Source: Nostoc sp.
Lineage (GTDB): Bacteria; Cyanobacteriota; Cyanobacteriia; Cyanobacteriales; Nostocaceae
Assembly: GCF_036918015.1 (NCBI RefSeq)
Contig: NZ_JBALEO010000077.1
Span: forward strand, 64,126 to 128,125
Direction of reading: 5' to 3'
Length of the DNA: 64,000 bases
The stretch's first letter is position 1, and each line of letters starts with the position of its first letter. This document shows, piece by piece, positions 21,597-24,481 of the stretch. The notes under the pieces are model-generated. The model made no database searches and had not been told where the DNA came from. It was given only the letters and a program-made list of their open reading frames with translations. The position numbers and the translations under genes are program-made.

Positions 21597-22544
21597 GTGT
21601 TCATTTCACTCCTAATTAATAACGTTAAAGTCTTAGTCAATGCAATGAAAACAATCACTTCACTTTTTAGCGAAGAACGCAACCAACTCCAGATAGATAT
21701 TGATAATACAATCGGCATCGAGCAAATAGTTAAACTGGTTCAAAATCGGCTCGATAATCTCGAAAGAATTTACATTGAAAAGCTTAATTTGGCTCAAGTT
21801 CGTCTGGCTTCATTTTTCCTGGATACGCTGCGGCAGTCTATCGCCACTCTGGCTGCGGCTAACTATCTTCAAGTTGCTCCAACCGAACAAAGGCAAATTA
21901 CTAATATAGGGACAAAGTTATTTAGCAGCAAATTCATCCTGAAACTGCTAAAGGGACTAATTTATATAGGCATCTTAGGTTCGTTGTTTTCCTTAACTAA
22001 AACTACCCCAGGTGCGTGGATGGCTATCTTATTAACCTCTCTACTTATCGGACTAGAAATTGTACTTCAACTCGAATCAAACAACCAGCAAAATAATTCT
22101 ATATCTGAAGGAGTATTGGAATTACCTCAACCGATTCTTCGGGTTGATAGCAAAGTATTTCTAGATTGCCTTGGCGATGCTCTCAACACTATCGACCTAG
22201 CAGTGGCTAGAGTAGAAGAAGGGAATAAACATGAAGGCGATTTAGCAATAGAAGAACTGCCAGAGTTATTGAATTTTCTGCAAAGACTAATGGGCGCATC
22301 CAAACTTGATAAACCCCAAATGGCTCATGAACTGGCGAAACTTCTGCCACAGATTTTAATGTCTCAGGGAATTAACGCTCAAATTTACCGATCAAATAGC
22401 GATCGCGAATATTTTGACTTTGAGCCAAGTATCGACCCCGACACTAAAGAACACGTGACTCTAACGCCGGCTTTGTTGAAAGGCGATCGCTTGATTCGGC
22501 GCGGTAGGGTAATTGAACCAGCATATTCCTCTGCTAGAGAATAA
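21597..22544 (+). CDS. Two-TM membrane protein with GrpE-like C-terminal beta domain (probable start 21645)
   Basis: TM pair at about aa 110-155; C-terminal YFDFEP...VTLTPALLKGDRLIRRGRV resembles the GrpE head; 14 nt upstream of an Hsp70 gene. Confidence 0.55.
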   Translation: MFISLLINNVKVLVNAMKTITSLFSEERNQLQIDIDNTIGIEQIVKLVQNRLDNLERIYIEKLNLAQVRLASFFLDTLRQSIATLAAANYLQVAPTEQRQITNIGTKLFSSKFILKLLKGLIYIGILGSLFSLTKTTPGAWMAILLTSLLIGLEIVLQLESNNQQNNSISEGVLELPQPILRVDSKVFLDCLGDALNTIDLAVARVEEGNKHEGDLAIEELPELLNFLQRLMGASKLDKPQMAHELAKLLPQILMSQGINAQIYRSNSDREYFDFEPSIDPDTKEHVTLTPALLKGDRLIRRGRVIEPAYSSARE

Positions 22545-22558
22545 TAGACAATAAGGGT

Positions 22559-24481
22559 ATGGAAATTTTAGAAACAATCGGTTTTGACTTGGGACACGGT
22601 GAAACGGCTATAGCTAAAGCGATCGTGGAAAGCATCGAACCTCCCCAGATGCTAGAGATTAATAACAAGAAGAACCAAATTACAGCTCTTGGTTGGCATC
22701 CCAAACTCGGTTATCTGGTCGGGGAACAAGCATTAATTCAAGCTGGCGTTACTCAACTGACAATCTCTTTCAAGCAAAAACCCAACAACGATCCCAAATA
22801 TCGGGAAACAATTAGCACTTTTGTGGCAACCTACTACCGTCTTTTGAAAGAAAGTAACCAACTTGCAGGTGGTGAAGGTAGCTATTTTTACATTGGTTGC
22901 CCTTCAGGATGGTCAGTTAGCGATCGCACCGAATACCAAAAGCTACTTAAAGAAGCTGGTATTCCCCAACTAAATGTCGTACCCGAATCGCGAGCTGCTT
23001 TCATGCAAGCCAAGGAAGCCGGGAAACTGGAGTATGACAAACTTGTTGCATCGGTGCTAATTGTCGATATTGGTTCTTCAACCACAGATTTTACTCTGGT
23101 TAAAAGCTTAGAAGAAATCCCGATAGATTTCGGGAGTAATACTTTAGGTGCATCCCTAATTGACAAAGCTATTTTTGCCCGGACTCTCGCCAACCACGAA
23201 CAAAAAACATTACTCGAAAAAGTATTTCAGGAATATCCCCATCACCAAGCTCGTTGTGAACTTGCTTGCCGCAAAGCTAAAGAAGATTACTTTTCTAATG
23301 AACAGTTATACAGCGATCCTGAATCCTTTGCGCGTGGGTTCGAGTCGATCAACGAACAGATTTATTTTATTCCCCAAGTGAATAAATTGATGATGGAAGA
23401 AATTTTAAATCAACCTTTACCTGAACTAGAGCTTAATAGTTGGATTAAATCATTTCGCAACTCTTTAACCGAGGCGAAAGAAAAGCTGGAAAAACTTGAA
23501 ATCGTGCCGCAACTTGTGCTGATGACTGGCGGTGCATCTCGCATGAAGTTCACGCACATTCTTTGTCAGGAAATGTTTCCCGAACCAGAAACGCTGCTTC
23601 GCCCCGATCCTGAACCAGAACGCTGCATTGCTATGGGTTTAGCACGAGTAGGAAGATGGGATCTGCGTGCTGCTGCTTTTAAGCAAGAAGTGAATAAACT
23701 ATTTACCTCAAACAAGCTTAAAGGTTTGATTGAAAGGCATATCCCGGAGTTAATCGAATCATTAACTAAGCCTTTAGCGGATGGTTTGATTATCAACGCA
23801 GTTAAACCAGGTTTAAAAGATTGGCAAAAAAACAAAATACGGACTTTAGCCGATTTGGAAACAGCTTTGATCGGTCGGGCAGAACAGTGGCTCAAAAGCG
23901 ATCGCGCCGTGCAGATAATTAATCATCAATGCGCTTCTTGGTTCAGCAATAAAATCCAACCCGATTTAGCCGCACAAACCGATCCAATCTGTCGAAAGTT
24001 TCAGATACCTAGAAGCAGCTTAAGGTTCGAGGATAGTATTGACCCAACTTTTGTTAACCCAGAATTACAAATTGGAGATGCTATTCTGGCTGAGACAGTA
24101 GCATTTATCGTCAATGTAGTAATTGGTGGAGGCGCTGTGGCTAGCATCATCACTCTCATCCTAACTGGACATTTAACCTGGCCAATTGCACTAGTCTATG
24201 GGGCTTCTTTGATGGCAGCAGGAATGGAACTAAATCGTAAGAGTGTTCAAGAAGTAATTAAGACAAATGTAGATGTACCTAGTTGGATTCGTTCTAATTT
24301 TTTGAGCGACAAAAAAATTGAGAATATGTGTGAGCAAATAAAGCCTGAGTTAGAGAAAGTTCTTCAAGAACAACTGACAGCAAATCAAGAGGCTTTTGAT
24401 AAACTGATTGTCAAAGTTGAGCAAGGACTTCAAAATAGCCTTTCCACCAAGGTTCAATCTTGCATAATTCTGATCCAATAG
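22559..24481 (+). CDS. Hsp70-family ATPase with atypical helical/hydrophobic C-terminal domain
   Basis: IGFDLGHGET, IGCPSGW, VPESRAA, IVDIGSSTTDFT, LGASLID, MTGGASRM; no canonical substrate-binding domain; hydrophobic hairpin VIGGGAVASIITLILTGHLTWPIALV. Confidence 0.85.
   Translation: MEILETIGFDLGHGETAIAKAIVESIEPPQMLEINNKKNQITALGWHPKLGYLVGEQALIQAGVTQLTISFKQKPNNDPKYRETISTFVATYYRLLKESNQLAGGEGSYFYIGCPSGWSVSDRTEYQKLLKEAGIPQLNVVPESRAAFMQAKEAGKLEYDKLVASVLIVDIGSSTTDFTLVKSLEEIPIDFGSNTLGASLIDKAIFARTLANHEQKTLLEKVFQEYPHHQARCELACRKAKEDYFSNEQLYSDPESFARGFESINEQIYFIPQVNKLMMEEILNQPLPELELNSWIKSFRNSLTEAKEKLEKLEIVPQLVLMTGGASRMKFTHILCQEMFPEPETLLRPDPEPERCIAMGLARVGRWDLRAAAFKQEVNKLFTSNKLKGLIERHIPELIESLTKPLADGLIINAVKPGLKDWQKNKIRTLADLETALIGRAEQWLKSDRAVQIINHQCASWFSNKIQPDLAAQTDPICRKFQIPRSSLRFEDSIDPTFVNPELQIGDAILAETVAFIVNVVIGGGAVASIITLILTGHLTWPIALVYGASLMAAGMELNRKSVQEVIKTNVDVPSWIRSNFLSDKKIENMCEQIKPELEKVLQEQLTANQEAFDKLIVKVEQGLQNSLSTKVQSCIILIQ

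Follow-up and report, generated by a model that had tools for sequence, protein, structure and literature searches.

In a 64,000-nt stretch of a Nostoc sp. genome (NCBI RefSeq assembly GCF_036918015.1, contig NZ_JBALEO010000077.1, positions 64,126 to 128,125 of the forward strand; hereafter the window, which lies on contig C77 of the 7.9-Mb assembly), two open reading frames (ORFs), 21597-22544 and 22559-24481, lie in tandem on the + strand. They encode two proteins, here called A and B, in which an Hsp70-type ATPase is combined with a putative GrpE-like partner and both members carry a predicted membrane hairpin. Each gene is single-copy in the assembly. A preliminary description of this DNA, made from its letters alone, correctly placed A 14 nt upstream of B and recognised its two hydrophobic helices; its start at 21597, the GTG of the longest ORF, did not hold. 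All 26 orthologues extracted begin at a conserved ATG that matches position 21645 (MKT...), and gene A is therefore taken as 21645-22544, encoding 299 amino acids (aa). It ends with TAA at 22542-22544, and the ATG of gene B lies at 22559. No terminator-like site was found between the two genes on the + strand in a consensus scan, and the spacing is similarly short in most Nostoc loci (about 18 nt from the end of A to the start of B by tblastn). A and B are predicted to form one two-gene operon. Its features are as follows.

21645..22544, + strand: gene A, 299 aa, with a three-helix N-terminal region, a hydrophobic hairpin and a probable GrpE-like C-terminal domain (ORF, conserved ATG, homologues, alignment, ratio of nonsynonymous to synonymous substitution rates (dN/dS)).
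21927..22085, + strand: residues 95-147 of A, two hydrophobic helices joined by the short loop TKTTPG, a predicted membrane hairpin (hydropathy, model, alignment).
22137..22529, + strand: residues 165-295 of A, the probable GrpE-like domain, including FDFEPSIDP and TLTPALLKGDRLIRRGRVIEP (model with a predicted local distance difference test (pLDDT) of 82-90, Foldseek, conserved motifs).
22545..22558, + strand: 14-nt spacer with the ribosome-binding-like motif AAGGG at 22553-22557 (sequence).
22559..24481, + strand: gene B, 640 aa, an Hsp70-type nucleotide-binding domain (NBD) followed by a helical, predicted membrane-inserting C-terminal domain (ORF, family, model, dN/dS).
22559..23653, + strand: residues 1-365 of B, the Hsp70-type NBD, with GFDLGHGET, F71-K72, E143-SRAA, DIGSSTTD and TGGASRM (Foldseek, PDB profile search, alignment).
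23654..24478, + strand: residues 366-640 of B, an all-helical domain without known family, in place of the Hsp70 linker, beta-sandwich and lid (DSSP on the model).
24065..24229, + strand: residues 503-557 of B, a Gly-rich hydrophobic hairpin (hydropathy, alignment consensus, low-confidence model helices 505-557).

The N-terminal part of B is an Hsp70-type NBD, as it had been read at the outset. With the AlphaFold2 model of B (pLDDT 84, predicted TM-score 0.75) as query, the top 50 Foldseek matches were all Hsp70 NBDs (best E 1e-15; target TM 0.6-0.69 on NBD-only chains), and the profile of the B family retrieved Hsp70 in 60 out of 60 among the matches listed from the PDB sequences (best E 3e-13). 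As a single sequence, B reached Hsc70 at E 1e-4, and MreB and ParM at E 0.08-0.5. There was no match of the window's B to PF00012 (HSP70) at E<=1; its sub-threshold Pfam matches were ParM_N and MreB-like_C only, some of its relatives match Pfam HSP70 weakly, and B drew no NCBIfam or PADLOC match above threshold. Residues D10, G12, F71, K72, E143, D170, G172, S173, T175, D177 and G324 are invariant in 39 diverse members of the family, and we take them to be the equivalents of DnaK D8, K70, E171, D194 and T199 together with the adenosine motif. As the ASKHA phosphate and adenosine motifs are invariant across these 39 members, B should be a catalytically active ATPase, to judge from its sequence. 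The search for relatives of B yielded 1,276 among 1.84 billion cluster representatives, and the family comprises at least 355 clusters (50% identity) at E<=1e-30, most of them about 640 aa long and matched over their full length. The source databases name such records 'Hsp70 family protein', 'DnaK' or 'ParM' ('plasmid segregation protein ParM').

Beyond the ATPase domain the likeness to Hsp70 ends. No beta strand occurs past residue 349 in the model of B, where helices occupy residues 353-639 by DSSP, and a search with 20 aligned sequences of the C-terminal domain as profile brought up no relative in Pfam or among the PDB sequences and no match to a substrate-binding domain (SBD). The lack of strands after residue 349 and of any profile relative suggests that B is an Hsp70-type motor in which an uncatalogued helical domain has taken the place of linker, SBD and lid, and in this the reading of the C-terminal part as helical, with a Gly-rich hairpin (at about 503-557) and without an SBD, has stood. 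W422, R578 and the C-terminal helix are conserved among the 39 aligned members. The family consensus of the hairpin, GGxxxAL...GPxGWxIGxxxG, is glycine-zipper-like, and by its model and hydropathy the C-terminal domain would insert into a membrane. Weak matches of this domain to DUF445 (E 0.037) were dismissed as chance.

Gene A has 698 homologues, every one of them annotated as hypothetical. Scans of A against Pfam, NCBIfam and PADLOC gave nothing above threshold, and searches of the PDB sequences, with A alone and with the A-family profile, gave no GrpE and no match of any kind. The family alignment falls into four parts: a helical N-terminus, the hydrophobic hairpin, a helical stretch around ELPELLxFLQxLMG, and a very conserved tail, FDFEPSxD...V(T/L)xxPALxKGDxxLRRGRVxEP. 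The best conserved part of the family is TLTPALLKGDRLIRRGRV, residues 272-289 of A, and the conserved C-terminal motif that carries it is present just as first described. Kyte-Doolittle windows for the two hydrophobic helices start at residues 96-99 and 121-127, and the model places helices at 95-118 and 124-147 with low pLDDT. In distant homologues a glycine-rich, glycine-zipper-like segment occupies the position of the hairpin. The A family would be one unannotated domain family, and the C-terminal domain of B a second one.

The C-terminal domain of A likely has a GrpE-like fold. The model has a mean pLDDT of 70.8, rising to 82-90 over residues 165-295, where a long helix (169-193, 25 residues) is followed by helices 206-220 and 224-240 and by six short strands between 243 and 291; an order of one long helix, two shorter helices and six strands is also that of GrpE in the published structures. 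Among 350,542 PDB chains, the first three ranks in Foldseek with the model of A were all GrpE, namely the T. thermophilus chains 3a6m_B and 3a6m_A (probability 0.96-0.98, E 0.08-0.12, target TM 0.40-0.44, 130 aligned columns) and 9a81_A, a GrpE-DnaK model (probability 0.41, rank 3), with human GrpEL1 at ranks 8 and 20. E values of 0.08-0.12 are not significant alone, and the half of the model with low confidence was part of the query. Since GrpE chains are rare in this library, however, their cluster at the top of the list is hard to ascribe to chance, and the ranking lends model-based support to the GrpE fold that had been proposed for the upstream protein.

Sequence comparison does not establish a kinship of A with GrpE. 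There was no PF01025 (GrpE) match to gene A at E<=1 in Pfam, and hhalign, run with the A family against an alignment of 17 cyanobacterial GrpE sequences from 17 genomes, gave a probability of 1.2-1.4% (pairwise P 0.036-0.045, score 18.5-20), beside a score of 14.5 and P 0.16 for a reversed-GrpE profile as control. Variants with the whole alignment, with its C-terminal part only and with an alignment enlarged by five diverged paralogue partners never exceeded 1.4%, and for this reason no sequence homology of A with GrpE is claimed. The extended hhalign alignment is collinear, pairing ELPELL with LLPVxDNFERA, the GI/GV helices with each other, FDFEP with FDP, and LRRGRV with VLRxAxV. Common descent of A and GrpE is plausible, and A may act as a nucleotide-exchange factor on B. 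A search of the whole genome with PF01025 found two other loci and not gene A. The canonical grpE is on contig C73, and a second, divergent GrpE paralogue lies outside the window at C68:144187-144588 (PF01025, E 8e-10); extra divergent copies like the latter also occur in other Nostocaceae. Because both are kept elsewhere in the genome, A would be a private factor of B.

The two genes are inherited together. A lies directly upstream of B in 87 of the 88 loci compared, which are the window, 80 loci retained when the family alignment was run against GTDB species genomes (all 80 cyanobacterial, with B 66-98% identical to that of the window) and eight metagenomic or Planctomycetota loci; the sole locus without A is a Pelatocladus contig. 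This pairing is far beyond chance, and the upstream protein is indeed co-conserved with B. In the Phycisphaerae and metagenome loci A is just 27-31% identical and keeps both its architecture and its tail, and diverged Nostocaceae paralogues, with B 29-40% identical, likewise keep an A partner. Both genes are under purifying selection, with dN/dS of 0.15-0.28 for A, which evolves faster, and 0.09-0.15 for B. One locus counted among the 87, on plasmid2 of Calothrix brevissima NIES-22 (L061:5018-5907), has a change of frame at residue 251/252 of A next to an intact B, which is either a frameshifted pseudogene or a sequencing error.

Beyond the pair itself little is shared among loci. Flanking genes are common to them only within the genus Nostoc and are never conserved beyond it, which argues that A and B form an autonomous module. 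No recurring Pfam or PADLOC family was found among 149 neighbour clusters. Neither a GTPase nor a tubulin family occurs among the neighbours in the window or among the 25 most frequent Pfam families of these clusters. The absence of an adjacent DnaJ, noted at the outset, is borne out, as in the window about 7 kb to each side of the pair are free of J-domain genes and no J-domain family is among the same 25; a J-protein might still act on B in trans. Homologues at 91-99% identity all carry the name Nostoc, and 13 of 18 Nostoc species genomes have a family member. Across the Nostocaceae, 144 of 251 genomes, in 36 of 67 genera, are carriers; about 80 of the 144 have orthologues at 80-97% identity and most others a second paralogue clade at about 35%. 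In a phylum-wide sample the family was present in 16 of 301 genomes, all of them in the order of the window, and in none of the picocyanobacteria; named relatives also occur in Phycisphaerae and Candidatus Binatia. The pair looks like an accessory module with a mainly vertical history, many losses and several paralogous lineages.

Immune domains such as TIR and caspase recur as fusions to relatives of B, an indication of a role in cell defence or membrane attack. In 19 of the 150 best representatives the match to B begins well inside the protein and leaves room for an N-terminal extension. This extension is a TIR domain in 13 cases, while a caspase with a CHAT protease, a Ser/Thr kinase and a PadR DNA-binding domain were found once each; P0244 has a second copy of the NBD, an arrangement seen again in the 1083-aa P0392 from another search, and the extensions of the remaining two hold no identifiable domain. 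A quick FastTree tree was built from 133 core sequences and is read here without branch supports; one of its clades unites the caspase fusion with eleven TIR fusions. The other two TIR fusions branch off independently within clades of unfused proteins, on the same half of the tree as the B of the window, so that TIR would have been acquired at least three times. TIR, caspase-CHAT and STAND are typical parts of nucleoside triphosphate-dependent conflict systems in multicellular bacteria. The recurrent TIR, caspase-CHAT and kinase fusions thus give independent support to the link with biological conflict that had been suggested at the outset.

Further members of the B family differ in their surroundings. 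TIR-B proteins were seen in two Nostocaceae genomes, with 809 aa at L150:6751-10056 and 783 aa at L151:5078-8194; the second lies beside SEFIR/TIR-STAND, ThsB-type TIR and TIR genes, and one Nostoc strain is on record with both a plain B and a TIR-B. Another Nostocaceae locus (L152:4890-8264) encodes a B-family protein of 1125 aa with a 460-residue N-terminal region without a Pfam match and has no A nearby. On metagenome contigs, a distant unfused operon consists of A, B, a HerA/FtsK-like ATPase of 910-937 aa with a 500-aa N-terminal region without known function, a small protein and a zinc metallopeptidase. Such extended operons lie at L113:9316-13130, L116:6006-8768 and L118:6338-11769, with ThiF in L118 only, and B is of the tandem-NBD form in L113 and L118. 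Other distant A-B loci have a ThiF-HTH context, and one is next to a type I-C CRISPR-Cas system.

Taken together, the pair is best read as a conflict module that is switched by ATP, inserts into the membrane and has an exchange factor of its own, a reading to which we assign a probability of about 0.5. Each hairpin consists of two adjacent hydrophobic helices with a very short loop, which would place both of its flanks on the same side of the membrane, the cytoplasmic one. As the ATPase domain of B must be cytoplasmic, the GrpE-like domain of A would be cytoplasmic as well, consistent with a contact between A and B at the inner face of the membrane. There, the GrpE-like domain could dock on the ATPase domain of B and either control the release of ADP or hold B nucleotide-free. 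The nucleotide state of B might then be passed to its helical domain and govern the insertion or oligomerisation of the hairpin, and the output would be damage to, or remodelling of, the membrane of the cell itself, as in conflict systems of the abortive-infection type. In the fused relatives the same motor might activate a TIR NADase or a caspase-like protease instead, or in addition. The contact between A and B, the exchange-factor activity, the coupling to the hairpin and the biological role are thus all put forward as predictions. A bolder and quite tentative extension is that the B family represents a new class of immune motor, in which the nucleotide cycle of an Hsp70-type ATPase, gated by a private, membrane-tethered GrpE-like factor, drives a glycine-zipper hairpin into the cell's own membrane as a pore-former or depolariser for abortive infection, and in which this motor has repeatedly gained TIR NADases or caspase-like proteases as other means of killing.

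Several observations weigh against a conflict module, in addition to the failure of profile comparisons to connect A with GrpE. The B of the window itself lacks an effector domain, and its hairpin is a poorer match to the glycine-zipper pattern than the family consensus is. No family in PADLOC-DB 2.0 matched A or B at E<=1. At the two TIR-B loci no A lies within the fetched region; each TIR-B gene instead follows the gene of a conserved protein, about 160 aa long, that has several hydrophobic segments and matches no family, and a small multi-pass membrane protein in place of A implies that A is not needed by every B. The neighbourhoods are equivocal too. The survey of neighbouring genes had been expected to show whether dynamin-like GTPases or defence genes accompany the pair: no dynamin-like GTPase is linked to it, and the few PADLOC matches in the 149 neighbour clusters (PbeA, Cas, a DRT reverse transcriptase, AbiEii, GajB-like), counted without a baseline, form no recurring family, the cyanobacterial neighbours being a mixture of housekeeping and defence genes. 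The gene had no match in 50,697 phage records and was present on a single plasmid, from Calothrix, among 72,556 PLSDB records. The more distant the taxon, the lower the identity of B, a pattern that resembles vertical descent with loss and not frequent transfer.

The last of these points would sit well with a role in membrane maintenance, in which the pair remodels, repairs or shapes the thylakoid or cytoplasmic membrane of large, mostly filamentous cyanobacteria in a dynamin- or PspA/Vipp1-like manner, with ATP turnover, set by the private exchange factor, driving hairpin insertion and without any role in conflict. Orthologue identity that tracks taxonomy suggests long vertical residence, the near-absence from mobile elements agrees with it, the genes are chromosomal and stand beside housekeeping genes such as the hormogonium polysaccharide locus, and both proteins have membrane hairpins, that of B as the hydrophobic tip of a long helical domain. 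The pair is nevertheless dispensable, being missing from 5 of 18 Nostoc species genomes, from about 43% of Nostocaceae genomes and from every genome of the phylum sample outside the order of the window. Maintenance would also leave the TIR and caspase-CHAT fusions and the defence-type neighbours of relatives unexplained, and neither a dynamin-like GTPase nor a Psp gene accompanies the pair. We consider maintenance a rather unlikely account. The accessory distribution and the effector fusions are equally left aside if the pair is a specialised chaperone or extraction device, with the helical domain of B handling clients such as membrane proteins and A as its GrpE, which would add a fourth type of bacterial Hsp70 to DnaK, HscA and HscC. 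Such a device would account for an ATPase domain with all catalytic residues present and for a GrpE-like partner that, with the canonical GrpE elsewhere, would be private. Yet B has neither beta-sandwich nor lid, its C-terminal domain resembles no known client-binding domain, and no J-protein is found in the window or among the 25 top neighbour families, all of which makes a chaperone improbable.

The names given to some records, 'plasmid segregation protein ParM', and the sub-threshold ParM_N and MreB-like_C matches could instead suggest an actin-like, ParM- or MreB-type filament protein anchored in the membrane, with A as its adaptor, and one copy does reside on a Calothrix plasmid. This we regard as very improbable, as Hsp70 NBDs make up all 60 of the listed matches to the profile and the whole top 50 by fold, without any ParM or MreB, the partner A has a GrpE-like fold in its model, the gene is almost always chromosomal, and no conserved neighbour fit to be a ParR-type adaptor was found.

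The closest reference for the pair is DnaK with GrpE, for which we take PDB 1DKG and 3A6M as the reference structures. The resemblance lies in the Hsp70 NBD fold and catalytic motifs of residues 1-365 of B, in the last 130 residues of A, which in the model show the GrpE order of elements and retrieve GrpE (3A6M) first, and in the coupling of A, adjacent and co-inherited, to the gene of an Hsp70-type ATPase. Unlike DnaK, B has no interdomain linker, beta-sandwich or lid, and unlike DnaK and GrpE the two proteins carry predicted membrane hairpins, have no linked J-protein, fall below the Pfam HSP70 and GrpE thresholds and are accessory rather than universal, with a canonical GrpE elsewhere in the genome. 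In its general plan, a nucleotide motor with a long helical domain and a hydrophobic, membrane-inserting tip, B presumably recalls the paddle of the bacterial dynamin-like protein (BDLP) of Nostoc punctiforme; the preliminary description had already likened the hairpin to such paddles. However, the motor of B is an Hsp70-type ATPase and not a GTPase, no sequence or fold match to BDLP was obtained (one dynamin chain appeared in the Foldseek list of A, with probability 0.02), and no dynamin-like gene is linked.

Searches of the literature for this architecture turned up GTPase-centric Hsp70 systems and CnuD of CoCoNuT, neither of which is the same, and no paper on the pair itself. The GAP1-N2 GTPase-centric conflict systems contain an atypical Hsp70, sometimes 'sans its peptide-binding domain', together with GrpE (Kaur, Burroughs, Iyer, Aravind 2020, PMC7159879). 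These predicted systems are enriched in multicellular bacteria, employ effector domains such as TIR and caspases, and are built on TRAFAC GTPases with FNIII/DnaJ or TPR proteins, mainly in Actinobacteria and Firmicutes (PMC7159879). They share with A and B an atypical Hsp70, in some cases without peptide-binding domain, a GrpE-like partner and, in the relatives of B, TIR and caspase effectors; they differ in that A and B have no GTPase, tubulin or J-domain neighbour, that both proteins are predicted to be membrane-anchored, and that the helical hairpin domain is new. In type III CoCoNuT, CnuD/CnuCD is an Hsp70-like ATPase of a predicted defence system, whose extended loci include HerA/FtsK-like ATPases and glycine-zipper proteins (PMC11090510). 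In the B family, too, a HerA/FtsK-like ATPase occurs in distant operons, and the hairpin consensus of B is glycine-zipper-like. CnuD, however, is an NBD/SBD unit with degenerate catalytic motifs that is linked to McrBC-type GTPases and HEPN RNases (PMC11090510), whereas in B the catalytic motifs are intact and there is neither an SBD nor a McrBC neighbour.

On one side of the pair the window encodes HpsL, two glycosyltransferases and two proteins of unknown function; on the other side it encodes an M90/MtfA-like peptidase, an EVE-domain protein and a methyltransferase. At 14968-19165 on the - strand lies part of a hormogonium polysaccharide locus, which adjoins the pair only within the genus Nostoc; its 564-aa ORF at 17471-19165 (-) encodes HpsL, as shown by an NCBIfam equivalog match (E 6e-271), and glycosyltransferases of families 2 and 1 precede it. 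Neither Pfam nor NCBIfam has a match for the ORFs at 19603-20379 (258 aa) and 20698-21489 (263 aa), both on the - strand, and the 263-aa protein sits divergently upstream of gene A in 28 Nostoc loci. On the other side, the M90/MtfA-like zinc peptidase is encoded at 24707-25531 (+), 226 nt 3' of B, and its synteny with the pair is confined to Nostoc. A functional link to the 263-aa protein or to this peptidase was considered and rejected, because both accompany the pair only within the genus. A zinc peptidase also ends the distant operons L113 and L118; it matches Peptidase_Mx1 and ATLF, with a weak M90 match in L113 only. Its counterpart downstream of B may be a coincidence or the remnant of a link. 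Further downstream, at 25622-26931 (-), an EVE-domain protein (151 aa, E 2e-54) stands beside a class I methyltransferase; EVE domains usually read modified bases.

As a motor of protein folding, Hsp70 is known to depend on a client-binding domain and on a J-protein. In A and B the motor appears to have been kept together with a GrpE-like regulator, while the client-binding half has been swapped for a helical domain predicted to insert into membranes, and the same motor core seems to have acquired classic immune executioner domains on several independent occasions. If the proposed mechanism is correct, a chaperone-derived ATP switch would join the known bacterial routes to membrane damage or NAD depletion. 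The pair would then also offer a tractable two-gene system in which the nucleotide cycle of an Hsp70 is coupled to a non-peptide output, with a 96% identical orthologue available in Nostoc punctiforme NIES-2108.

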